Shown: one piece after another, positions 541 to 32,095 of the stretch
How the letters are laid out: every line of letters starts with the position of its first letter
How positions within the stretch are numbered: the first letter of the stretch is position 1
Position numbers and translations under genes: made by a program
IMG/VR virus record: IMGVR_UViG_3300044878_000031
Location: 32,001 to 96,000 of that record
DNA: 64,000 bases
Origin: a virus
Strand: one strand, 5' to 3'
The notes under the pieces: model-generated
Databases searched by the model: none
The model's input: only the letters and a program-made list of their open reading frames with translations
Told to the model about the DNA's origin: nothing

Positions 541-1962
541 TTATCTGCCGTGATGAATGAAGTTCGCGATCGTAGCAATGATCGTAGACGAAAGACTCAC
601 GTGACCAGAGATTGCTCGAGGTGCACGCAGGTCCAGTACACCGTTGCGTGGAGCCAACGGGTCTAACTTCTCCAGCGTCTTCTGATCCAAGATCACAATG
701 CCGTTGAGGGCGTCACCGTCAAAGTCAGCGTTCATCCCCGAGAGAATGTTCACAGACGGACTGATGGTGTTGATACGAGGATCTTTCTTGATGCGACGAA
801 TGTACAACCGTTGCGCCGACAGACGGGTCAGCGTTGGGTTACGTTGGAAGATGACCGGAATACCTTTACGAGGGGATTCGTTAATCAACTCCTGGAACAA
901 TTCATCCAACAGTGGATGGTAACGCAGGGTGTTCTCGTACAGGAACTTGTTAGCTTCGTTCGGAGTGAACCCACGTTTCAGCAGCTTCGCCGTCAGGTGG
1001 ACTTTGAAAGTCATCACCGACAGTGACCACGGCGCTTCCAGATCTTCATAGTGGTGAGGATCAGAGAGCGACGAGATTACGCCACGGAACGAGAAGTTGA
1101 CTCGAGAGCCGAAGATGTGTTTCCGATACCAACCAGGCTTCCCGCCCAGTTGCGTAGTAATGAAGGGAGCGTAATACGCCACCAACATGTTGAGAGCCTT
1201 GATCGTACGCAGTTCGACTTCCCGTTGCCGTAGGGGCGTAGGGGAATTCTCGATTGCGCTGAAGGTACGCATGGCACTTACCGCAGGAGTCATGCCAGTG
1301 TCAGCATAAGTGCCGGTGGCTGTGTTCTCCGTGATAAACGTTACCCGGCTTGGACAGGGTAGGTACTTCGAAAAGATCTGTTTCCGGTACATCTGGATAA
1401 ACAGCAGGGTGTCATCCATTTGCTGCTGGTTCTTGTTGTTCGGAAGTACTTCCCGCAAGAACAGATTCATCAGGCTATCAAAGTTGCGGTAGAACGCGTT
1501 GATCCCTCGACCAATGCCCAGCCCTTTCAGGTACTGGATAATGTTCGCTGAATCATTGTTGGGGGGAATGTAGCTTGGATTTGTAATCCAGTCCAACAAG
1601 TTCGTTCCTTTATATACGAAGACCGGCTTAAGCACATGGAATGCCCAAGGGTTAATCAACGTATCCACGCCTTTCGGTGTGGTAATCCACAGTAACGATT
1701 CCAAGGGCCGTTCGGTAACAGACATACAGGTAAACCCGCAGTTGTCACACACAACTCCAACGTTGTGCTCGAACTTGACCTTCTTACACTCACATGACGG
1801 CACGACGTCTAAGGTGTCACCCTCATAACGCGTCATGATCATTTGGTTCAGTCGTTCCCTGTCTGCCTCGGTGGTAACGTCGAAGTCGTTGATGATGACT
1901 GGAGTTGAAGTGAGGCTATGGAACAACTCATCATGACTAACGATTTCCGCTTCTACACCCAT
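541..1962 (-). CDS. Non-virion RNA polymerase beta'-like subunit (phiKZ gp55-like)
   Basis: N-terminal Zn-binding CxC...CxxC, RNPTL motif and catalytic NADFDGD; directly downstream of chimallin as in phiKZ-like phages. Confidence 0.92.
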   Translation of the reverse strand: MGVEAEIVSHDELFHSLTSTPVIINDFDVTTEADRERLNQMIMTRYEGDTLDVVPSCECKKVKFEHNVGVVCDNCGFTCMSVTERPLESLLWITTPKGVDTLINPWAFHVLKPVFVYKGTNLLDWITNPSYIPPNNDSANIIQYLKGLGIGRGINAFYRNFDSLMNLFLREVLPNNKNQQQMDDTLLFIQMYRKQIFSKYLPCPSRVTFITENTATGTYADTGMTPAVSAMRTFSAIENSPTPLRQREVELRTIKALNMLVAYYAPFITTQLGGKPGWYRKHIFGSRVNFSFRGVISSLSDPHHYEDLEAPWSLSVMTFKVHLTAKLLKRGFTPNEANKFLYENTLRYHPLLDELFQELINESPRKGIPVIFQRNPTLTRLSAQRLYIRRIKKDPRINTISPSVNILSGMNADFDGDALNGIVILDQKTLEKLDPLAPRNGVLDLRAPRAISGHVSLSSTIIATIANFIHHGR

Positions 1963-4564: not shown

Positions 4565-4676
4565 TTTAATACTCAACTCCACAGTTGAAAAAGATTAAAT
4601 GATAGATTCGTTCTAGTCTATCACGAGGATAGTATGTGTTTCAAATTCCTTTGAATCGACTTTTAAGGGCCGCCCA

Positions 4677-5777
4677 ATGTACACCCTATTTAACGAACCG
4701 ATCTGGGGTACGAGTGGTGCTAGTGTTACTTTCCCCAAATACCTCCGGGCGACCCAAGGCCTGAGACAGAATCTGGAGAAGGTGGTTCAGTACAACCGTA
4801 CTTATCCAAGGGCTGTGGAGAGCAACCACTTTCTGGTAAAACTCCTGGCATCCCTTAACGTACCATTAAGCATGGATGTCAACATTTACCGGGACCGGGT
4901 GGAGGAGGTAGCGGAAGGCGTGAGTATGGCCTTCAACTTGACTTCTTCCTTATATAGAGGCCGAGTGTTCTCTCCGGGGATCTTCTACGGGAAAGGGTCT
5001 TCTGAGATCATCATTGCCCATGCTGAAGAATTCGACATCCGCAACATTGAGGATGAGTGGGAAGATTACCGCCCAGTGACTTTCCTGACTCACCCCAAGA
5101 CTGACCTAGGGATTGACTTGCCCTTGGGATTCCAGAACGGTAGCGAAGAAGGTTTCTCTGTCATTCTGGTAAACATTCCGATGTTGGCTTGCCAGTACCG
5201 GATGTGGCGTATCCGAGAGTACCGGGAGAACAATGAAGCACAACGCACCAAAATGCAGTTCGTGTCTTCGTATCCCCTGACCAACGCTCTGTACTCCCAA
5301 CTGGACATTGCGATCCTGAATCGTTTCCAGCGCATCTACCGGGGAGAACCTCGGGGTATGTCAATGCTGCGTAAGCCCTACACCCTGACTCGTTTGGAAC
5401 AGGAACTGGACTTTGGGTTAGACCAGTACGCGGAAGACTTGCAGAAACGCAACTACACCTTCGATCACGTCCTTAGCTATATTACAGGCGTCTCGAGTTG
5501 GACGATGCGTGATGCTATCCGTATTCCTCCGATGGCACCTACCCGGCAGGTTACTTGGGCTTTGGCCTTAGGTCGGGCTGAGCTGGTGAACTTCCTGCTC
5601 GACTGGAACATCGAGAACGACGTCAAGGCCAACAAAGGCTATTGCAACACGATCCAACTGGAGACTTCCCGGTTGCTCAATGACAGTATCATCAAGTCGA
5701 TGCTACCGATGTGGGCACAGAAACCCTGGGACGATCTCTTACGCAAGATCATCGCCAAAGCAAAAAGCGTCCGCTAG
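4677..5777 (+). CDS. Conserved Chimalliviridae core protein (phiKZ gp52-like), function unknown
   Basis: 366-aa ORF on the opposite strand between chimallin and DNA polymerase, the usual arrangement in this family. Confidence 0.7.
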   Translation: MYTLFNEPIWGTSGASVTFPKYLRATQGLRQNLEKVVQYNRTYPRAVESNHFLVKLLASLNVPLSMDVNIYRDRVEEVAEGVSMAFNLTSSLYRGRVFSPGIFYGKGSSEIIIAHAEEFDIRNIEDEWEDYRPVTFLTHPKTDLGIDLPLGFQNGSEEGFSVILVNIPMLACQYRMWRIREYRENNEAQRTKMQFVSSYPLTNALYSQLDIAILNRFQRIYRGEPRGMSMLRKPYTLTRLEQELDFGLDQYAEDLQKRNYTFDHVLSYITGVSSWTMRDAIRIPPMAPTRQVTWALALGRAELVNFLLDWNIENDVKANKGYCNTIQLETSRLLNDSIIKSMLPMWAQKPWDDLLRKIIAKAKSVR

Positions 5778-5779
5778 GG

Positions 5780-5825
5780 AAACAGGGAGGGGCTCGCGCC
5801 TCTCCCTGTTTCTCCTTATGCCGCA
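5780..5825. terminator. Bidirectional terminator between convergent genes
   Basis: GAAACAGGGAGGGG/CCTCTCCCTGTTTC inverted repeat followed by TTATGCCG. Confidence 0.75.
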
Positions 5826-8044
5826 ACAGACGCTGGAACAAAGTCCGAAACCAACTTAGTATTGTTGTCGTTAGACAAGAACACACCAAGGGATTCCAAA
5901 ATCAAATAGAACGGCCGGACAGTGGAGTACACGAGTTTACGGATGTTCATTGCAGACAGCACTTCAGTAGGCAGACCTACTTGCTCTACGACGTCCTTCG
6001 GCAACAACAGAGTAGTTGCGTTAGTCTTGTCGCGATAGGTAGTCATCAATTGCATCTTGATGTTTGGATCTTGGATACCCTCAATCCATTGGCCCAGTGC
6101 AGTTTTGTTAGGCAAGTCTAGGGAAACCTTGATTGCCGAGTACGGTGGTTTTGGAGCTTCACCGTATTTGCCGCTGAACACACGTTCCCACAACAGGTAG
6201 TGCTGGTACGGAGATTGACCTGGGTTAACGTAAGCACCTGCGTCTTTAACCGAAGCACGAGCCAAGTACAGGGATTCCCCACGCATAACCGACGCGACAA
6301 TGCCGTGTTCGATGTCTGCGATCTTCTGCATGATCGGAGTGATCTTGATCTTCTCACCAGCCATCACGCAATCCATTACCCCACACATCGTGGCTGTAAC
6401 TTCCTTCATGATGTTCGGAGGACAGTTCGAGTCTTTGAGGTAAACCCCTTTGATCTCTTCCTCCAGCTCGGTGAACACGTTACCTTCTTTGGCTGCCTTG
6501 TAGGCGTAGTAGTGCTTAGCCATCGAGGTCAGACTGAAGACAGAGAATGCAAACTCGTTCTTCATGGCCAGTACGTTGAGTTTCTCAGGGACTACGCCCA
6601 GAGTGGTCGACAACATAGCCAGTACGTGAATGATCGACTGAGTAGCCAGATAAACCATGGTGTAATCCACGGCAAACGACTCGGGACTGAAGTCCACCTT
6701 ACCGGTGTACCACTCTACCCAGTTCTGCACGGTGAAGATCGTGGAGTCTGTGTCGGAGGTAATAGCTACCTGACGCACCGAATCCCGAATCCATGCAATA
6801 GAAGCAGGCATGTTGTCTGTAACCCAGAACGCTTTGATCAACCACTGGTAATCGTTGAGTACCGAATGGATGTTCTTGACCGTAGCGCCAATCAGGCAGT
6901 AGTTGTGGGGGTTCTGTTCCAGCAACTTACCCAGGCCTAGGCCCGACAGTTCATCGGAACACAGCAAGCTTACAAACGCTTTGAGGTCGTTGTCCATTCC
7001 CTTGATGAAGGTCTTGGCTTCTTCCAGCTCAATCGGCACTGTAGCTTTCTGGGAGAGACGCGCCATAAAGACACGCATCGGTACATCGTTGTACTTCGCC
7101 AGATGCCACATGTCGCCTACGTAAGCAAACGCAGCACGCTCATGATCGTTCAACCCTTCTACCAGAGCACGGATCTCTTCCATCTGACGACGGTTGGTCC
7201 AGTAGTGTTGAGTCGAGTACGCAATCAGTTGCATGGTCTCGTCTACGGTTGGAGCACGGAATCCGTAGAGATCCATAGCCTTAGCGATCAAGTCGTAATC
7301 CACGTGACCGATAATGCTGACGATGTTGGCCTTCACTACGTCTGGTGCCCAGTAGTGACGGTTGCCTGCAAGGAACTTCTCGTTGTTAGCGTTACCCAAC
7401 GAAGTAGCTACCCGGCAAGTAGAAGTCAGACTGGAGTGTGCAGACTTGTTGTGGAGAATCGTGGAAGCCGACGCTTGCCCACCGGACAGACTGTTGTTCG
7501 CAATCTTGTACGTGGTCTGTTCGTTTTCCTTGAGGTCTTCCAGTTCTTCCATGGTTGCCGCTTGGCGGTTCATGAAACGAGCCTGAACTGTATCACCCGA
7601 TGCTAGGAACTCAGCCGCTTTCAGCTTGAACTCCTGACCAGCCATCTTGGCTTCCAGACCTTCGTGCTTTACTTTACCCCGACCGACGATGTTACCGGTG
7701 ATGTATTCGGAGAGTAGAGACGGCAGTACGTCTGGATGTTCGTAGACTGTCATGCTTGGAGCAAACAGCCAACGTTGTTCGAGGATGTCCTTCAAGTACT
7801 GAGTGAAGGTGGTTTCGTATTGTCCCCGATCCCCATTCTTTCCACGGTTAATACAGAGGAGAGTAGGGTCAGTGATTTCGAACTTGCCGCCTGGACCAGT
7901 AACCCGGAGAACGTAAGCCTTGCAGTCCTCTACGGGTTTACCGGTACGTCTGCTCAGGAACAGAGCCATATCCCGACGATAGTTACCCAATACGTCTAAG
8001 TCGCGTTTATACGCAGACGCTGGTTTAACAAAATGGTTTTCCAT
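5816..8044 (-). CDS. Family B-like DNA polymerase, polymerase subunit (phiKZ gp50-like)
   Basis: KIANNSLSG (motif B-like), SDTDS (motif C), KHY and IKGV motifs; no obvious exonuclease domain, as expected for the split phiKZ polymerase. Confidence 0.88.
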   Translation of the reverse strand: MENHFVKPASAYKRDLDVLGNYRRDMALFLSRRTGKPVEDCKAYVLRVTGPGGKFEITDPTLLCINRGKNGDRGQYETTFTQYLKDILEQRWLFAPSMTVYEHPDVLPSLLSEYITGNIVGRGKVKHEGLEAKMAGQEFKLKAAEFLASGDTVQARFMNRQAATMEELEDLKENEQTTYKIANNSLSGGQASASTILHNKSAHSSLTSTCRVATSLGNANNEKFLAGNRHYWAPDVVKANIVSIIGHVDYDLIAKAMDLYGFRAPTVDETMQLIAYSTQHYWTNRRQMEEIRALVEGLNDHERAAFAYVGDMWHLAKYNDVPMRVFMARLSQKATVPIELEEAKTFIKGMDNDLKAFVSLLCSDELSGLGLGKLLEQNPHNYCLIGATVKNIHSVLNDYQWLIKAFWVTDNMPASIAWIRDSVRQVAITSDTDSTIFTVQNWVEWYTGKVDFSPESFAVDYTMVYLATQSIIHVLAMLSTTLGVVPEKLNVLAMKNEFAFSVFSLTSMAKHYYAYKAAKEGNVFTELEEEIKGVYLKDSNCPPNIMKEVTATMCGVMDCVMAGEKIKITPIMQKIADIEHGIVASVMRGESLYLARASVKDAGAYVNPGQSPYQHYLLWERVFSGKYGEAPKPPYSAIKVSLDLPNKTALGQWIEGIQDPNIKMQLMTTYRDKTNATTLLLPKDVVEQVGLPTEVLSAMNIRKLVYSTVRPFYLILESLGVFLSNDNNTKLVSDFVPASVAA

Positions 8045-13428: not shown

Positions 13429-13515
13429 TGGTACCCGAAGCCGGGGTCGAACCGGCACGGCCTTTCAGCCATCGCATTTTAAGTGCGGTGCGTCTACCGA
13501 TTTCACCATTCGGGC
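13429..13515 (-). tRNA. tRNA-Leu(UAA)
   Basis: Cloverleaf GCCCGAA/TTCGGGT, loop CTTAAAA, long variable arm, encoded CCA. Confidence 0.95.
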
Positions 13516-13601
13516 AAAAGGGTGCCTTCTCTCACGTCGGGACAGGGTTCTTTGTTTCCGGCGCAGATCCATCACTCATTGAGAGAGAAGACATAACAAC
13601 G

Positions 13602-13695
13602 TTGGGGGATCGACACGATAGGATTCGAACCTATGGACCGTAGCCAGCGCTTAGCGCTTGCCTTAAACCACTCAGCCACGCGTCGAAACCCCCAA
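13602..13695 (-). ncRNA. tRNA-like RNA with collapsed anticodon arm and extended acceptor stem
   Basis: Intact D arm and T arm (ATAGG-TTCGAAT-CCTAT); anticodon arm AGCGC-TAA-GCGCT; no CCA at the canonical position; outer TTGGGGG/CCCCCAA stem. Confidence 0.75.
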
Positions 13696-13816
13696 ACTCT
13701 GTGTACCACATTAGTCCTCCTAGTTCTGATTACCCTGCGCGTCAGGTCGGTCGTAACTAGGATGGGCGTGTACCGACGCCCCGTTTTACTTCTGTTCCCT
13801 AAGGAACCTTCTAATG

Positions 13817-13898
13817 TGCGGCCCTCGGCAAGATTCGAACTTGCGACCTTCACCGGACCGAAGTCCGACAACGTTCTAACCGACTGAACTACGAGGGC
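13817..13898 (-). ncRNA. tRNA-like RNA with a UUCG tetraloop in place of the anticodon loop
   Basis: Perfect acceptor GCCCTCG/CGAGGGC, canonical D and T arms; central arm TTGTCGGAC-TTCG-GTCCGGTGA; ends CGCA. Confidence 0.8.
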
Positions 13899-13906
13899 AT
13901 TACAAA

Positions 13907-13992
13907 TGGCGGAAGGATAGAGATTCGAACTCTAGGACCTGTTACAGTCGACGGTTTTCAAGACCGCTGCAATACCGCTATGCGACCCTTCC
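13907..13992 (-). tRNA. tRNA-Ser(UGA)
   Basis: Cloverleaf, loop CTTGAAA, long variable arm, GCCA end. Confidence 0.95.
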
Positions 13993-14254
13993 GAAATCGA
14001 GCCGGGGCTTTCCCCGGAGTCACCACATAGCCAAGGCGGCGGCTATGAACCAATGGGAAACCCTGAGCAAGAGCCGATGGTACTCGGAGTCAGCAAGCTC
14101 ACCTCTATGGGGTACGAGATCTACGTGTATCGCTGTGTGAGCAACGATCCACTCCTTCGCAGGGGCAGGACACCAGGCAGGGCAGGCGCTTAGTGTTGGG
14201 CGGACCGTCTCGTTTATACTCGAGTACAGAAGCGCCTGAGGCGCGGTCCATAAA

Positions 14255-14342
14255 TGGCAGTAGATAAGAGATTCGAACTCTTGTGGCTGTTACACCAACA
14301 CGCTTTCCAGGCGTGCCCCTTAAGCCGCTCGGGCAATCTACT
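14255..14342 (-). tRNA. tRNA-Ser(GGA)
   Basis: Cloverleaf, loop CTGGAAA, long variable arm, GCCA end. Confidence 0.95.
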
Positions 14343-14349
14343 GTAGTGC

Positions 14350-14501
14350 TTCGATCATTACCCGGTGTGCGGTATATCGTATCCGCTCAGGCGTCCCAGC
14401 TAGGATTTCGGGTTGTACCTAGAATGCCGCCTTGGACGGGCGGAGTTATACCTTTCGGCGTTTTTAACTATTGGGACTCTTTTACCGCACCACTGATCGA
14501 A
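14350..14501 (-). ncRNA. Candidate structured RNA in a tRNA spacer
   Basis: Nested stems TTCGATCA/TGATCGAA, GTGCGGTA/TACCGCAC and GTCCCA/TGGGAC enclosing three hairpins, one with a GAAA tetraloop. Confidence 0.6.
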
Positions 14502-14572
14502 TTGCTTTATCGGGAATCGAACCCGAGTGAGCCGCCTGTGTGGCAGCCGTTCTACCATTGAACTATAAAGCG
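14502..14572 (-). tRNA. Atypical tRNA (nominal anticodon CAC, Val) or tRNA-like RNA
   Basis: Good D and T arms; anticodon loop CACACAG lacks U33; C1:A72 mismatch; no encoded CCA. Confidence 0.65.
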
Positions 14573-14576
14573 TGCT

Positions 14577-14651
14577 TGGCTCCGAGACCTGGACTCGAAC
14601 CAGGGACCAAACGGTTAACAGCCGTTTGCTCTACCACTGAGCTATCCCGGA
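14577..14651 (-). tRNA. tRNA-Asn(GUU)
   Basis: Cloverleaf, loop CTGTTAA, GCCA end. Confidence 0.95.
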
Positions 14652-14659
14652 ATGAAACT

Positions 14660-14842
14660 TTAGGCCGACTTCAGAACTTCAGTGACCTTGATCTCGCGAT
14701 CGTCGTAGACAACGCGCTGAGCTTGTTCACCGTCTTGCAGGATGAACTTCTCGTACACTTCGCCAGTAACGCGATTCACGATAACCACTTCGACTTCTTT
14801 ATCGGAAGCGCAGTGGGCTTGAGTAATAACTGTAGTAGTCAT
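14660..14842 (-). CDS. Small hypothetical protein (60 aa, beta-rich)
   Basis: AAGGAG RBS, highly expressed-type codon usage, directly downstream of the Tad2-like gene. Confidence 0.8.
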   Translation of the reverse strand: MTTTVITQAHCASDKEVEVVIVNRVTGEVYEKFILQDGEQAQRVVYDDREIKVTEVLKSA

Positions 14843-14851
14843 GACGACTCC

Positions 14852-15490
14852 TTAAACAGGGCGACGGTTGTAGTTGACGCGCTTAACTTCAAGCTCGACG
14901 AACAGCGCAATCGGATACCCTTCAGGCAGTTGTACAGCAACCTTGGAGTTTGTGGTCTCTTGGTTAACCGTAATGCTGAATGGAATTTTAACGACGCTAC
15001 CGAGAGTGCCGTTGAGGTGAATGTCTCGACCGATCTTTACAGACCGTGAGAAAGTCGCTGCAACTTCAACATCGTCTTTGGTAACGATGCGGAGAACCTT
15101 GACTGAGTCAATGCTGTCCGTGATGTCCACAGCAACGCCACTGGCTCCTACCAGACCGAACAGGCTCTTGGCATCACCGTCTTTCAACGGGAGGCGTACA
15201 TTGGAGACGTCAGTGTTGATGGAAGGTTCCGTCAGGATCTCCCAGTCTTTACCCAGTTGATCCGATTGAGCCGGATGCCACGGGGTGAAAACGTTCTGAG
15301 CTGTCTTCATGCCAACCCACGGTGCCAGTGTTGGACACTCGTTCTCACCAGGCTTGTAGCCCAGGGTTGCACAACCTACATCGTAATTACCCGGAGTGAC
15401 TAACACCAACCACATGTCTTTGCCATTCCAACTTGGGCGAGTAACACGCTTGCCTTCATGCAATGCCGCAATTGCTGCACCGAAGTCCAT
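14852..15490 (-). CDS. DUF2829 / Tad2-like anti-Thoeris sponge domain fused to an extra C-terminal domain
   Basis: MDFGAAIAALHEGKRVTRPSWNGKDMWL ... PWHPAQSDQLGKDWEI matches the DUF2829 pattern; start ATG 15490 with AAGGA RBS. Confidence 0.82.
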   Translation of the reverse strand: MDFGAAIAALHEGKRVTRPSWNGKDMWLVLVTPGNYDVGCATLGYKPGENECPTLAPWVGMKTAQNVFTPWHPAQSDQLGKDWEILTEPSINTDVSNVRLPLKDGDAKSLFGLVGASGVAVDITDSIDSVKVLRIVTKDDVEVAATFSRSVKIGRDIHLNGTLGSVVKIPFSITVNQETTNSKVAVQLPEGYPIALFVELEVKRVNYNRRPV

Positions 15491-15500
15491 GGGTAATTCC

Positions 15501-15662
15501 TTAACAAACGAGGATAGGGACTGGAATGCCTTTCTCGGCACAGACGCGCTTTAAAGCTTCGTCTGCATCTTTCCAGCGCTGTAGTCGGGCGAGGCTTTGC
15601 TCACGAGACTGCGGAGTAATCTTGGAACGATCCAGATCACGTAAGCGAAAGACCGGAACCAT
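15501..15662 (-). CDS. Small hypothetical protein (53 aa, MVPVFRLRDLDRSK...)
   Basis: AGGAGG RBS; fills the gap between tRNA-Ser and the Tad2-like gene; below the ORF-track size cutoff. Confidence 0.65.
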   Translation of the reverse strand: MVPVFRLRDLDRSKITPQSREQSLARLQRWKDADEALKRVCAEKGIPVPILVC

Positions 15663-15678
15663 GAGGCCTCCTAAAACG

Positions 15679-15766
15679 TGGCGGCGGGTGAAGGATTTGA
15701 ACCCTCGGGGCTGTTACACCCTCTCCCTTAGCAAGGGAGCGCATTAAACCACTCTGCCAACCCACC
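15679..15766 (-). tRNA. tRNA-Ser(GCU)
   Basis: Cloverleaf, loop TTGCTAA, long variable arm, GCCA end. Confidence 0.95.
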
Positions 15767-15773
15767 GTGAAAA

Positions 15774-15850
15774 TGGCGCCTCCGAACGGACTTGAACCGT
15801 CGACCCCTAGCGTGACAGGCTAGTGCTCTAACCAACTGAGCTACGGAAGC
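15774..15850 (-). tRNA. tRNA-Asp(GUC)
   Basis: Cloverleaf, loop CTGTCAC, GCCA end. Confidence 0.95.
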
Positions 15851-16044
15851 GTAAACGTCCTGAGGAATATGGACTCTGCAATCACCCAGACTGTGCCTGT
15901 AGGTGCATCGCGTGTAGGCTCAAGGTTCGTGTAGACTACCATGGGCCAAGAACAGTCCTGAGCATGACGAGCAAGGCTTAGCACTTTAAAGCGCAGCCCG
16001 CTAGGAGATAGATACTCTCCTTTCTCTTCAATAGTCTCAAGCAT
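15841..16044 (-). CDS. DUF1653-like small protein
   Basis: G-x-x-F-x-V-x-x-x-A-x-H ... VVY-x-x-L ... W ... F pattern; start ATG 16044 with GAGGA RBS; stop codon lies inside the tRNA-Asp 5' end. Confidence 0.65.
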   Translation of the reverse strand: MLETIEEKGEYLSPSGLRFKVLSLARHAQDCSWPMVVYTNLEPTRDAPTGTVWVIAESIFLRTFTLP

Positions 16045-16298
16045 GTTCGTTCCTCGAATTTGTTGCCTACTTGCTTCCCGTTTGAAGCGGGTTGCTAAAC
16101 TCATGTGTAACCAGACGCCCCGCAGGTCATGGGCTTTATCTATCTAGCCAAGCCGCCCCCGAGGGCACCGAGTTAGATCCACTGGATTACGAGTTAGGTG
16201 ATCCTCTCAGCGTTTGTCACGCCAAGTTAAACATGAAGACCGGGAACGGCTATCCGCGAATTCGCAAGCCAATAGTTCTTCAACGTAAGGATCGTAAA

Positions 16299-16384
16299 TG
16301 GTGGGTGAGGTAGGATTCGAACCTACGAAGCCATCGGCGTCAGATTTACAATCTGATAACTTTGAACCACTTGTATACTCACCC
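16299..16384 (-). tRNA. tRNA-Tyr(GUA)
   Basis: Cloverleaf, loop TTGTAAA, long variable arm, ACCA end. Confidence 0.93.
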
Positions 16385-16473: not shown

Positions 16474-16516
16474 ATGGCCCTCGCTAATGACTCCCCAGGA
16501 GTGCACTGCCACAAAA

Positions 16517-16655
16517 TGGTCCTCCGCTGTCGGATCTACCGACGCGACCGCTTCAACTGACCCCCGGCGTACGGGACGTTTAGGTTACACTAGAACAACA
16601 TTCCCACGCAGTAGCGTTCACAATGCGCACTCTAATGGCCTTGGTCTACAGAGGA
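16517..16655 (-). ncRNA. CCA-terminated, acceptor-stem-containing RNA (~140 nt)
   Basis: CCTCTGT/GCGGAGG stem plus ACCA end, preceded by a GTCGG-TAGAT-CCGAC hairpin in the T-arm position. Confidence 0.55.
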
Positions 16656-16669
16656 TGAAACTATGAATT

Positions 16670-16799
16670 TGGCCCCGAGGGGTGGACTCGAACCACCGAC
16701 CTCCCGCTGGCAAGCGTGTTTAAACGTTCTCGCCACGTTAGTAGCTATCAACGTAACCGCATGTCTAACGAGTGTTCTAACCGACTGAACTACCCAAGG
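16670..16799 (-). ncRNA. tRNA-like RNA with a ~53-nt insertion in the anticodon loop
   Basis: Canonical D arm, T arm (GGTGG-TTCGAGT-CCACC) and GCCA end; stem CTCGTT/AGCGGG closes a large structured insert. Confidence 0.78.
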
Positions 16800-16808
16800 G
16801 ATTGAAAG

Positions 16809-17029
16809 ACTAACCGCTACCCCGACCTACGGAATGCAATACTCACTGTGACCTCTGGAGGAAAAGAAAGAAAACCCCAGAGCAACTCGGTATGCAATCG
16901 AGCCATGTAACACATTGAGTCGGGTCACGCTACTCCAACCGCAGAACACCGGAAGTCCGTCAAGTCCCAGTAGATTCCCCTTTCGCCGTGAAGCTAGAGG
17001 TCGTGCTGGAATCCCTGCTATCGGTCAGT
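16809..17029 (-). ncRNA. Candidate structured leader RNA of the tRNA operon (~220 nt)
   Basis: Terminal stem ACTGACCG/CGGTTAGT (G-U on minus); internal stems GGATTCC/GGAATCT, CTCTGGGG/CTCCAGAG, ACTCA/TGAGT; no ORF. Confidence 0.5.
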
Positions 17030-17095
17030 AACGTGTAGGTCTCTCAATAGATCACTGGAGTATGTAAATTATTACGTAAACTCAGGCAAAAAAAA

Positions 17096-19219: not shown

Positions 19220-19414
19220 TCAGCCCAACCCTACTCCTGAAGGGCGGTTCTCGACCATGTGTTTAGCAGGATCGTAAACCACCTTCTCGTAGCAGTTGTG
19301 CCAAGGCTTTCCTTGACAACACGTACAGTGGAACGGAGCAGCCGCTGGAGAGGTGAGTAACTCAATCACCCCGCACTTGTCACAGGCGTACTCCAACAGC
19401 GCTCCACCACTCAT
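19220..19414 (-). CDS. Small Cys-rich (Zn-ribbon) protein
   Basis: CxxC ... CxxC ... WH; start overlaps the phuZ stop codon. Confidence 0.75.
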   Translation of the reverse strand: MSGGALLEYACDKCGVIELLTSPAAAPFHCTCCQGKPWHNCYEKVVYDPAKHMVENRPSGVGLG

Positions 19415-20388
19415 TACAGCACCAGGCCGTCGTCGGTGACGGTGTCCTTGGCATCGTTGATCAACTTCTGGGCAGCAGCGCGGCCTTCGCTACGCTGTTC
19501 GAAGTCGTTGATGGTCGATTGTAGGCGATCGAAGGTAGCACCCAGGTGTTGGGTGGATACCACGAAGTGCAGCTCCTGGATGTCTTTCACCGGATGTAGG
19601 AAGTAGCCAGTGCAGGAGTATTCCGGCACGGGGGTTTCCAGATGCGGCTGATTACGATCGGCGTACAGCGAGGCGATCGAGATCGGGTCAGCAATTTCAG
19701 ACACGTCGCTGGCGCCAGCGAAGATGTCCAGCAGAACCAGTTGAGCTTCTACGCTGGTCGACTTGTTGATGTTCAGCCAGTTGTAGATGTCCTTGGTGTC
19801 CAGCTCGGCGTTCTGACGCGAGGCCAGGTAGCACAGGCAGGAGATTGCGAAGTCCAGTTGGTCGTCGACAATCTTGCGAGTAGCTTCGCCGCCGTTGTGA
19901 CGGTAGAACGCGACCAGCGGTTTGTCGATTTGCTTGGTGATAGCCGACAGGGACTTCACGGTGTTCAGGGTGTTGCGTGCAGTGATCGCAGCTTCGGACG
20001 AACCGGCGGAAACGATAACTACGGAGTGACCACGGTCAGCCAGCTCTTTTGCCAGCAGTGGGCCGATTACCGAACCCGAACCGCCCGACGCCGAGAAGAC
20101 GACGATGTTGAAATCTTCAGGAGCCTGCTTGAGCAGGATCTGTTTGATGACTGCGGAGATCTGCGCGTGGTTCTCTTTACGCACTTTACCGGAGCCGTCG
20201 GTTTTCTCGAGGATGAATACGTCTTCTTCCTTGACCGTGTCGGTCAGGTTGGAACGACTGGTGTCCACGAAGCTTGGGAGCAGATCCGCGAAGCCCGGTG
20301 CGGATTGACGATTCAGGTAACGCAGGGCAACGTTCACGCCCAGACCACCACAACCGTACAGACGCACTTTACCTTTACCTTGTTCCAT
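19414..20388 (-). CDS. phuZ: PhuZ phage tubulin
   Basis: GCGGLGVN, DTSRSN, GSGKVR, tubulin signature SGGSGS, NAELD, acidic C-terminal tail DDGLVL. Confidence 0.95.
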   Translation of the reverse strand: MEQGKGKVRLYGCGGLGVNVALRYLNRQSAPGFADLLPSFVDTSRSNLTDTVKEEDVFILEKTDGSGKVRKENHAQISAVIKQILLKQAPEDFNIVVFSASGGSGSVIGPLLAKELADRGHSVVIVSAGSSEAAITARNTLNTVKSLSAITKQIDKPLVAFYRHNGGEATRKIVDDQLDFAISCLCYLASRQNAELDTKDIYNWLNINKSTSVEAQLVLLDIFAGASDVSEIADPISIASLYADRNQPHLETPVPEYSCTGYFLHPVKDIQELHFVVSTQHLGATFDRLQSTINDFEQRSEGRAAAQKLINDAKDTVTDDGLVL

Positions 20389-30409: not shown

Positions 30410-32095
30410 TTACAGAGCAGTAACCTGCAATGTAACCATCCCGCCCATGCCCAACTGGAGGTCTCCCTCTTGTAGGCGTTTGACGAAACGAATGAACAAC
30501 GGTTTCCCGTCCTTCGGTACTTCTGGAACTTGCAACTCCGTGTTCCAACGATCAATTGGGTAAGCGAATTCCTTACCGTTGATCATCAGCATGAAGTAGT
30601 TCGGTTCCGGTGCTTGGGTTTCGGATTGAGTATTCACCAACGGCTGAGCGTTGTAGAACACGTCCTTGATCCACAAGTCTTTCAACAGGTAACCCGAATC
30701 AATCTTCAGGAGCCAGTTGTTGACGTTGATGAACTTAGCCCGTGCACGCAGACCTTTACCGTACAGCTCAGGTTGCCCCGAGTAGTACTCGATGTTCCAT
30801 CCGTTGGTCTGGGTGTTACCCGGAGCCAGCAGTGCTACACCGATAGTCTGGGCGTGACGCCAGTCGGAGTAGTTGCTATCGATGTCGGACATGTTGATAC
30901 CAACGTTGATACGCTGGATCGGACCGTACGACGTCGGGTCGAATGGGTTCGAGTTGAGTGCGAAGGTAACCTTGTCAGTCACTTCGAAGAACTCAGAACG
31001 GTTGAGGTTGAACAAGAACCAGCGCAGCTTGTAACCCATGGTGGCATCGATCCACTCTGGGAAACAGAACAACTTGACAGAGTACGCACCGTTCATTCGT
31101 GTAGTGGTTGCCCAATACGGAACAGACATGTGCTTAGTGACGTTAGCCGAAGCCCCGTACACGTACTCTTCAGCCGACAGCTTGTACGACAGAGCCAACT
31201 CGACCTTCTGCCCCACGATGGTAGCAATGAAGTTCTGCAACCCGTACAGGTTGAACTTGGTTCCGTCGACTGGCATGATCTTGCGAGAGCCGTCGCTGTA
31301 CGTCACCACACCACGAGCGTTGAGTGCGTCGATCGGCATGTTGATAGCGAACTTCAACAGACTGTCGTCGCCTTCCGAAATGAACGGAGACTCGAGGTGG
31401 ATACTGGTGATAAACTTCTTCGACGCGTCCGTAGTACGGATGAACGCCGTGTTCATAACCAACAGCTTGGTGATCGAAGTCACGTTACCCACGGCATCGT
31501 ACAACACCGCAGTAACCACTTCATTGTCCGGCAGCTTCTGCAAGGTGTAACCAACCATCGGAGCTTTCACTGCGTAGTTGATTGCAGAGGGAACACCCGA
31601 CTGTGGGTTGTTGGGGACTTGCACCAACTCCAGTGGAATGTTCTCACCGAGCAACGTACCGCCGTGATCGTACATCGCAGAGATCACTTTGGATTCGTCA
31701 CTGATGTCCGTACCCCAGAAGATCTTGACGCTCGACACAGTAGTACCGTAAACCCGCAAGCGAGAGTCGATAGCCAACACGTGAGGAGTAACCGAGGTAT
31801 CGAGATACACACGGTAGGATTCATTCTGGTGTTCGTGACCCACACCCAACAGGATGTCTTCATCGGACACTTCAGAACCCGTCTTCGGAGGTTCGTACTC
31901 TTTGAGCTGACTCAAGCCAGTCAAGAGGTTAACGGCGATTACTTGCCAGAGACCAGTTACCCAGTCCCAGACTTCGTCGTTAACGTTAGGGACGTAGCGC
32001 CCCGTACCGGTAGGACCGGTATAGATCTCATCTTTTCGCCACCGACGGTGACCCCGGTTAGGGTCTGTGATCGGGACGATAAACGTATCGCTCAT
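30410..32095 (-). CDS. Virion structural protein (phiKZ gp26-like, probable baseplate)
   Basis: 561-aa beta-rich ORF next to terL. Confidence 0.72.
   Translation of the reverse strand: MSDTFIVPITDPNRGHRRWRKDEIYTGPTGTGRYVPNVNDEVWDWVTGLWQVIAVNLLTGLSQLKEYEPPKTGSEVSDEDILLGVGHEHQNESYRVYLDTSVTPHVLAIDSRLRVYGTTVSSVKIFWGTDISDESKVISAMYDHGGTLLGENIPLELVQVPNNPQSGVPSAINYAVKAPMVGYTLQKLPDNEVVTAVLYDAVGNVTSITKLLVMNTAFIRTTDASKKFITSIHLESPFISEGDDSLLKFAINMPIDALNARGVVTYSDGSRKIMPVDGTKFNLYGLQNFIATIVGQKVELALSYKLSAEEYVYGASANVTKHMSVPYWATTTRMNGAYSVKLFCFPEWIDATMGYKLRWFLFNLNRSEFFEVTDKVTFALNSNPFDPTSYGPIQRINVGINMSDIDSNYSDWRHAQTIGVALLAPGNTQTNGWNIEYYSGQPELYGKGLRARAKFINVNNWLLKIDSGYLLKDLWIKDVFYNAQPLVNTQSETQAPEPNYFMLMINGKEFAYPIDRWNTELQVPEVPKDGKPLFIRFVKRLQEGDLQLGMGGMVTLQVTAL

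Follow-up and report, generated by a model that had tools for sequence, protein, structure and literature searches.

Genomic location and architecture of the element

A tRNA-shaped element of 130 nt was analyzed in a 64,000-nt stretch of viral DNA (positions 32,001 to 96,000 of IMG/VR record IMGVR_UViG_3300044878_000031; hereafter the window), which belongs to one 112-kb contig. The element is located on the minus strand with its 5′ end at 16799 and its 3′ end at 16670. The phage is a chimallivirus (nucleus-forming jumbo phage), because both the PhuZ tubulin (19414-20388, minus strand) and a divergent family-B polymerase, PolB (5816-8044, minus strand), are present. The nearest named phages are Xanthomonas phages, with PhuZ identities of merely 42-46%. 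Among the tRNA-shaped units of a minus-strand RNA island, the element comes first. Its acceptor, D and T arms are intact and a GCCA end is encoded, and the anticodon loop is replaced by a 60-nt irregular hairpin, designated here as the rod. Its parts, all on the minus strand, are as follows.

16670..16799: whole tRNA-shaped RNA gene (35.9 bits with Rfam RF00005; cloverleaf read from the sequence; CCA at 16672-16670)
16793..16799: 5′ strand of the acceptor stem, CCUUGGG (partner at 16674-16680)
16774..16790: D arm GUUC-AGUCGGUUA-GAAC with A14, G15, G18, G19 and A21 (from the sequence and the alignment)
16768..16772: 5′ strand of the anticodon stem, CUCGU (partner GCGGG at 16703-16707)
16708..16767: 60-nt rod in place of the 7-nt anticodon loop, folding as one irregular hairpin
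16761..16767: UAGACAU, the 7 nt that follow the stem, similar to the anticodon loop of tRNA-Val(GAC) except for A33
16750..16754: 5′ strand of helix P4, ACGUU (partner AACGU at 16724-16728)
16729..16749: internal loop GAUA/GAG around the P5 hairpin GCUAC-UAAC-GUGGC
16714..16723: 3-nt U-rich bulge UUA, 3′ strand of P3 (AAC), A, and 3′ strand of P2 (CGC)
16681..16702: variable loop AGGUC and T arm GGUGG-UUCGAGU-CCACC (T stem fully paired)
16670..16680: 3′ strand of the acceptor stem CCUCGGG, discriminator G and encoded CCA (from the sequence)

Relatives were collected by several searches. A PhuZ search of IMG/VR yielded one contig, L001 (67% PhuZ identity), and searches with the conserved motif just upstream of the element and then with the D-arm sequence yielded L002 and L003 with L005. 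A gapped pattern (D arm, 55-85 nt, AGGTC plus T arm) run on IMG/VR and a metagenome collection retrieved an identical copy (L020), a copy different at 1 nt (L033) and a diverged orthologue present in two assemblies (L018 and L019). The homologues of the rod comprise four distinct sequences, all from uncultured relatives. Homologues of the 166-aa protein encoded upstream of the island (P0002-P0007) point to closer relatives.

Structure of the tRNA-shaped body

The Rfam tRNA model (RF00005; curated gathering cut-off, 29 bits) matched positions 16673-16799 of the minus strand as a cloverleaf with a score of 35.9 bits (E-values of 8e-5 and 3e-6 when 7 kb and 261 nt, respectively, were searched). 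The alignment left out 60 nt between the two anticodon-stem strands (shown as [60] between asterisks), where a 7-nt loop is expected. ARAGORN made no call for the element at 16670-16799. The acceptor stem (CCUUGGG/CCUCGGG) contains one mismatch, U4.C69, which recurs in the elements of L018, L033 and L003, and the 3′ end (CCUCGGG, G, CCA) is also matched in these three. The anticodon stem, which may have a sixth pair (U.A) beyond CUCGU/GCGGG, is paired in 96.7% of the cells across the relatives.

The bases for tertiary contacts (U8, A14, G15, G18, G19, A21, G46 and C48, together with AGGUC and GUUCGA) are present and invariant in the six aligned rows. The D loop and three of the four D-stem pairs are also invariant (6/6 rows), and the fourth pair co-varies from U-A to C-G in L001. 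Three of the five T-stem pairs co-vary in comparison with the other chassis (GCAAG/CUUGC; the term chassis is used here for the tRNA-like bodies), and co-variation was observed in the acceptor and T stems of the aligned elements. Given the Rfam score above the cut-off, the invariant tertiary bases, and the co-varying acceptor and T stems, the tRNA body is, on this comparative evidence, real and under selection. Support for the fold comes from the comparison with relatives and not from the single-sequence folding energy, which is unexceptional (z values of -0.24 for the whole element and -2.1 for the insert).

An earlier annotation made from the letters of the window (the sequence-only reading) had described canonical D and T arms, a GCCA end and an insert in the anticodon loop, and the sequence and the RF00005 match at 35.9 bits confirm this description. 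It had also reported that the element shares a 20-nt D-arm segment and the AGGTC variable loop with a second element at 13817-13898. Both are real; the shared segment, GTAGTTCAGTCGGTTAGAAC, lies at 16793-16774 in the first and at 13892-13873 in the second.

Fold and covariation of the rod

All five distinct rod sequences align to one architecture on top of the anticodon stem, a nested and conserved fold in which P4 (ACGUU/AACGU) encloses the P5 hairpin (GCUAC-UAAC-GUGGC). The variants of each part are listed below.

P2: GCG/CGC in the window; CCC/GGG and CCUC/GAGG in relatives
P3: GUU/AAC or GCU/AGC, in 5/6 rows
3-nt U-rich bulge: UUA, UUU or CUU, present in all relatives
P4 (5 bp): ACGUU/AACGU, CCGCU/AGCGG, CCAUC/GGUGG, CCAUC/GAUGG or CCACC/GGUGG
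4/3 internal loop: GAUA/GAG, GUUA/GAG or AUUA/GAA, with ..UA and GA. kept
P5 hairpin loop: UAAC, UUCG or CUCCAGU, free to vary

Pairing was counted in a MAFFT alignment (A2) of six rows, five of which are distinct in the rod. In this alignment 95.5% of the cells are paired, compared with 80.6% in shuffles (0/500 shuffles reach the observed value), and as the five sequences are related by descent these statistics are indicative but not conclusive. When the partners were slid along the alignment, pairing dropped to 37-50%. Sixteen pairs show changes on both sides. In particular, the five pairs of P4 are formed in 6/6 rows, with four of them changed on both sides, and P5 is paired in 100% of the cells. 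RNAalifold, run without structure guidance, returned the same cloverleaf with P3, P4, P5 and a further 3-bp helix (covariation term, -5.5). The evidence that the rod is a conserved structure is good but not conclusive.

The comparison of inserts among homologues that the sequence-only reading had proposed gave the same rod, with compensatory changes in four distinct homologues. That reading had likened the element to a tRNA scaffold displaying a cargo RNA. A conserved structured module in a tRNA-shaped body is retained from this likeness (by covariation and by its presence in one copy), while the cargo hairpin that it had named was abandoned: GTTACGTT...AACGTGGC can be drawn in the window but is not kept in L018, L001, L002 and L005.

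Known motifs and base-pairing targets were also considered. A kink-turn reading of the U-rich bulge fails, as the required G.A pairs are wrongly placed. The ..UA/GA. loop possibly has a loop-E/S-turn outline. The search for complementarity suggested earlier, when run on the 112-kb contig, gave no support for an antisense RNA; the best match of the rod is 12 nt (E 0.27) and falls in a part that the relatives do not conserve. An antisense loop is also disfavoured because the P5 loop varies freely, even to a UUCG tetraloop.

Distribution of the rod among chassis

A covariance model of the rod was searched in the window and in the available stretches of the relatives. Exactly one copy was found in the window and in each relative's stretches (85-91 bits), with no other match above 26 bits in any of them, and the relatives that carry the rod reach down to 67% PhuZ identity. 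Patterns of the rod core retrieved eight new contigs (P5-core pattern) and one contig (another pattern) from IMG/VR. These were rejected as relatives and look like chance matches; they lie outside any tRNA shape, with no T arm or tRNA call nearby, and several are apparently within coding sequence. L042 and L045 were rejected despite 25.6 bits, with a fold no better than that of shuffles and no tRNA nearby.

The body that houses the rod is not the same in all lineages. The window, L018, L020 and L033 carry the rod in the operon's first chassis, and L001, L002 and L005 carry it in the chassis after tRNA-Ser(UGA) and before a highly conserved RNA starting with ATTAGAAGGTTCC. The orthologue of the latter body in the window is the second element mentioned above.

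13817..13898, minus strand: sister chassis, orthologue of the rod-carrying body in L001, L002 and L005; rod absent, anticodon-arm helix capped by UUCG

This orthology is based on the tRNA-Ser(UGA) upstream, the ATTAGAAGGTTCC... RNA downstream, and a T arm (GCAAG/CUUGC) as in the L001, L002 and L005 body. The second chassis of L018 (about 5072-5150) is also without the rod and has a short anticodon-arm helix capped by a UUA triloop. The window element itself is a chimera, with an acceptor stem and T arm like those of the first-position chassis of L003 and a D arm, anticodon stem and rod that match the L002 and L005 carriers. Because the rod occupies different chassis in different lineages and the empty chassis are capped, it is the rod that is retained. 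The earlier proposal of a family of scaffolds with exchanged anticodon-arm modules is supported by this comparison across lineages.

Anticodon position and the intron question

The first 7 nt of the rod in the window, UAGACAU, are one base off UUGACAU, the loop of Escherichia coli tRNA-Val(GAC). The homologues have CCAACCU (L018 and L001), CUAAUCC (L005) and CGGGCAU (L002) at this place, with no common anticodon. U33 is kept in 1/5 (A33 in the window; C33, C33, U33 and G33 in the relatives) and a purine at position 37 in 2/5. No homologue has a usable anticodon loop, and a 7-nt loop with U33 and purine 37 is not present in the window either. Five of the seven bases differ between the window and L018, though the flanking arms are identical, and in each case the seven bases pair with the 3′ side of the rod. 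They appear to evolve as a helix and not as a decoding loop, with the constraint on pairing. With the rod in place of the anticodon loop, the RNA cannot present an anticodon, and it probably cannot decode. Its ancestor may have been an interrupted tRNA-Val gene rather than a purpose-built scaffold.

Group I introns have a P1-P9 catalytic core and are usually 200 nt or longer. The sequence-only reading had considered the insert too short for this class, and rightly so; the insert is 53-60 nt and has no Rfam intron or ribozyme match. An Rfam scan of the locus with permissive thresholds (up to E 10) reported the tRNA alone, with no match to Intron_gpI and none to self-cleaving ribozymes (hammerhead, twister, pistol, hatchet and HDV-like). 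A bulge-helix-bulge is absent: nowhere in the consensus fold, one uninterrupted irregular helix, do two 3-nt bulges enclose a helix of 4 bp. The families PF01974, PF01139 and PF09414 were not found in four genome records (G000-G003), which are 30-86% complete, so that their absence is unproven. RtcB, tRNA-intron endonuclease, Rnl-type ligase and CCA-adding enzyme were not found in the window genome and two relatives that are 86% complete. Two wastewater runs labelled as RNA-Seq cDNA are probably DNA; their Logan contigs include an unspliced one (16702-16852) and none with a joint across the insert.

Inserts of 40-60 nt directly after an otherwise canonical 5′ part of the anticodon loop were observed in tRNA genes of unrelated phage or metagenome arrays (L007/L009, L008/L012/L013/L032, L014/L035, L016/L023, L022, L025, L027, L031, L034 and L037). 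The junctions are, for example, UUUCAA| in L007, CUUAUA| in L008 and UUGGUAA| in L014. The interrupted tRNAs include UCA suppressor-like, Ile-UAU, Thr-GGU and Gln-UUG species with Rfam scores of 42-57 bits, and their inserts match no ribozyme or intron family in Rfam. These look like true short interrupted decodable tRNAs, as in Lak phages. Such a class of interrupted tRNAs exists, and the chimallivirus clade of the window appears, from the homologous loop sequences, to have left it. A tRNA-Met(CAU)-like gene in L017 (56-163) has an insert with CUGAUGAG...CGAAA, the core words of a hammerhead ribozyme; it gave no Rfam hammerhead match at E 0.05 or below.

RNA island around the element

The island is arranged in the order of a leader, the element, a second scaffolded RNA, tRNA-Tyr, and further tRNAs and tRNA-like units down to 13429. 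ARAGORN called ten tRNAs at 13429-16384 on the same strand as the element, three of which are remodelled tRNA-like units. No second tRNA island is present on the 112-kb contig, and Xanthomonas phage LucasX, the nearest named phage (PhuZ identity of 46%), has no tRNA island beside phuZ. Searches of the region by blastn and megablast against 50,697 phage records returned ordinary tRNA matches and nothing else. The features next to the element and further along the island, all on the minus strand, are as follows.

17114-17095: terminator-like site that ends the upstream 166-aa gene
16800..17075: conserved AT-rich box and ORF-free conserved leader RNA of ~250 nt, after the terminator and abutting the 5′ end of the element
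~16478-16646: second conserved domain of ~100 nt, here in a degenerate tRNA-like body
14852-15541: 229-aa open reading frame (ORF) with a Tad2-like domain
14499-14572: unusual "tRNA-Val"
13700-13815: ORF-free conserved stretch of ~110 nt
13607-13686: tRNA shape without an anticodon, called tRNA-Ala(agc) by ARAGORN

The region 16800..17075 is a putative promoter plus leader. Its sequence is conserved in L018 (2090-2367) and partly in L001-L003. In a leader hairpin, CUCUGG...CCAGAG, the pyrimidine-rich loop GGUUUUCUUUCUUUUCCU forms the anti-Shine-Dalgarno core CCUCC jointly with the first bases of the 3′ stem strand. The motif GTAGGTCGGGGTAGCGGTTA sits directly before the tRNA shape. In L001 (13633-13785), L002 (~4952-4800, minus strand) and L003 (~2523-2370, minus strand), an ORF for a hydrophobic protein of ~50 aa separates the upstream motif from the first chassis; the window and L018 lack this ORF.

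The second conserved domain (..TAGAGTGCGCAT.GTGAACGCT... / ..CTAAACTCTCCCGT.AAACGGAG..) occurs once in each relative's stretches, in varying tRNA-like chassis (L018, 2511-2671; L001, 13912-14070; L002, ~4634-4784, minus strand; L003, 2203-2359, minus strand). Its body in the window is degenerate, having lost the D arm and retaining a degenerate T arm, a 7-bp acceptor-like stem and a CCA end. The stretch of ~110 nt (ATTAGAAGGTTCCTTAGGGAACAGAAGTAAAAC ... CCTAGTTACGACCGACCTGACGCGCAGGGTAATCAGAACTAGG) also occurs in L001 (19258-19360), L005 (~1800-1920, minus strand) and L018 (5150-5260). It is almost identical in phages at 67% PhuZ identity, far more conserved than the proteins, and matches nothing in Rfam; it probably represents an independent structured RNA located immediately 3′ of the second tRNA-like chassis. 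The unit at 13607-13686 has D and T arms of the Ser type and an anticodon arm consisting of a GCGC-UAA-GCGC mini-hairpin; a compost relative (run X2) has 68 other letters in place of this stretch.

The "tRNA-Val" of the island, also found in L002 (1890-1963, minus strand) and L018 (4269-4342), has a length of 69-70 nt, a T stem of 4 bp and a base other than U at position 33. The window, L002 and L005 share the loop CACACAG (A33), L018 has CGAACAA (G33), and the copies of the window and L002 do not differ at all (100% identity). The gene encodes either a decoder that evades nucleases or a further mimic that does not decode. The 229-aa ORF has a domain like that of Thoeris anti-defence 2 (Tad2; Pfam PF11195, E 1e-21), which places an anti-defence gene among the tRNAs. 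Tyr(GUA), Asn(GUU) and Asp(GUC) are among the canonical tRNAs encoded in the island. They represent three of the four queuosine-family tRNAs cut by anticodon nucleases of the colicin E5 type, and the set is consistent with replacement tRNAs.

Proposed function and alternative explanations

We suggest, with a probability of roughly 0.6, that the element serves this nucleus-forming jumbo phage as a tRNA-shaped carrier RNA that does not decode. It would be transcribed from an RNA-only operon that runs from the leader through the element, as the first tRNA-like unit, to the second scaffolded RNA, tRNA-Tyr and further units. By the established rules of bacterial tRNA maturation, an intact acceptor/T-arm minihelix and RCCA end should allow host RNase P to cut at 16799/16800 and thereby to free the leader RNA as well; 3′ trimming would stop at the encoded CCA. 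The predicted product is a stable L-shaped RNA with one long arm, barred from decoding. The rod, stacked on the anticodon stem, would be the working part and offer a specific binding surface, because the apical loop is unconstrained, in contrast to the fixed helices, U bulge and ..UA/GA. loop. To judge from this pattern, the rod most likely binds a protein rather than acting as an antisense RNA. The tRNA body would supply processing, stability and perhaps access to the tRNA-binding machinery.

A more tentative extension is that the island holds a natural tRNA-scaffold system, in which interchangeable chassis matured by the host tRNA pathway each carry their own cargo (the rod, and the second ~100-nt domain next door), and that the rod serves as a decoy or sponge for a host tRNA-binding factor such as a tRNA-targeting defence nuclease. 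The decoy is the most attractive speculation because the island contains the Tad2-like anti-Thoeris gene and the Tyr, Asn and Asp tRNAs.

Several observations weigh against a non-decoding carrier RNA. The U4.C69 acceptor mismatch is conserved, the covariation comes from few and related rod sequences as noted above, and a precise excision of 53 nt would restore an anticodon arm like that of tRNA-Val, though in the window lineage alone.

It is unlikely, in our estimation, that the tRNA shape is a processing signal only, with RNase P/RNase Z punctuation freeing the neighbouring RNAs and the rod a stable, harmless helix without a partner of its own. A conserved leader RNA on the 5′ side and another scaffolded RNA on the 3′ side would suit such a role, and the capped or shrunken anticodon arms of other units (13817-13898, 13607-13686 and L001 15939-16016) are expected if only the acceptor/T half matters. 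However, neutral filler is not expected to be a single copy that moves between chassis and keeps the same 4/3 loop, 3-nt bulge and helix lengths at 67% PhuZ identity, and the phage can cap the arm with a tetraloop when the rod sits elsewhere.

We regard it as rather improbable that the element is an interrupted tRNA-Val(GAC) gene, in which the 53 nt after UAGACAU are a short intron excised by ribozyme activity or host enzymes to give a working tRNA. Removal of 16760-16708 leaves CUCGU-UAGACAU-GCGGG, a Val-like arm, and short inserts are common in phage tRNA genes, including those of L007, L008 and L014 and of Lak phages (Devoto et al., 2019; PMC6784885). The rebuilt loop, however, has A33, the homologues share neither an anticodon nor the flanking U33 and purine 37, and the loop bases co-vary as part of a helix. 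Moreover, the searches described above found neither a bulge-helix-bulge nor a match to group I introns or ribozymes, and they revealed no endonuclease or ligase of the phage. A decaying, functionless tRNA pseudogene broken by an insertion is very improbable: the lack of a usable anticodon, the acceptor mismatch, the missing ARAGORN call and the unremarkable single-sequence folding energy would fit it, but the four arms and tertiary bases are intact and invariant or co-varying, compensatory changes occur within the insert, and identical or near-identical copies are present in independent metagenomes (L020 and L033).

Phage tRNA clusters have been known for fifty years to contain unexplained tRNA-like stable RNAs, such as species 1 and 2 of phage T4. 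The element is a cleaner case, with a full tRNA body whose sole change is a conserved, co-varying rod that is present in a single copy and has moved between chassis. If it is expressed, nature uses the tRNA-scaffold trick that RNA engineers invented, and the element would be a small defined RNA that may allow a nucleus-forming phage to act on the tRNA biology or the defence of its host. Splicing would instead make the insert a new kind of bacterial or phage tRNA intron.

Comparison with known systems

In mascRNA/MALAT1, the tRNA-miRNA units of MHV68 and mitochondrial tRNA punctuation, tRNA shapes are handles for RNase P and RNase Z that define the ends of a neighbouring RNA. The operon layout suggested here is similar, but there the tRNA shape has the other RNA as its neighbour and does not enclose it in the anticodon arm. 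The tRNA genes of Lak megaphages contain "enigmatic" introns that are short, have conserved sequence and fall outside the group I rules (Devoto et al., 2019). They resemble the rod in being short, in the anticodon region and in a very large phage. The Lak genes were called as decodable tRNAs after removal of the insert, whereas no usable loop is kept in the clade of the window, where the bases at this position evolve as a helix.

Ro/TROVE is found in some jumbo phages together with a tRNA-like partner (PMC7824862). YrlA, a Y-RNA-like RNA of bacteria and phages that acts with Ro (Rsr), is like the element a tRNA mimic joined to a protein-binding helix. Its topology is reversed, with the ends in a long stem and the acceptor-like helix closed. 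YrlA gave no match at the element, and elsewhere there was a chance-level match over two tRNAs (21.7 bits versus 69). The TROVE domain (PF05731) was not found in the four records G000-G003, although its absence is unproven given their completeness of 30-86%. ARAGORN reported no tmRNA, and the element, unlike tmRNA, has a D arm and an anticodon stem. In the literature searched, including a 2026 review of jumbo phages, no such RNA is mentioned for Chimalliviridae.

Close natural parallels are found in phage T4, whose small RNAs are known in their stability and processing from old biochemistry. T4 species 1 (rnaC) and species 2 (rnaD) are, like the element, small unexplained RNAs within a phage tRNA cluster (NC_000866 annotation). 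T4 rnaC has a tRNA-type T arm (CCGGG-UUCGAAU-CCCGG) and paired ends, and its other arms are replaced by long hairpins. The element likewise lies in a phage tRNA cluster and has a tRNA-like T arm and paired ends, but no sequence similarity to rnaC or rnaD. The enlarged parts of rnaC do not form a single rod on a full cloverleaf, whereas in the element the D arm, anticodon stem and variable loop are canonical and the loop alone is replaced.

The architecture of the element is identical to that of the tRNA scaffolds engineered by Ponchon and Dardel, which have a structured cargo instead of the anticodon loop, stacked on the anticodon stem, and whose tRNA body reportedly gives correct processing and protection from nucleases. 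In the element the body would presumably have the same protective role. The engineered scaffold is man-made, whereas the element is natural, conserved and recombined among chassis.

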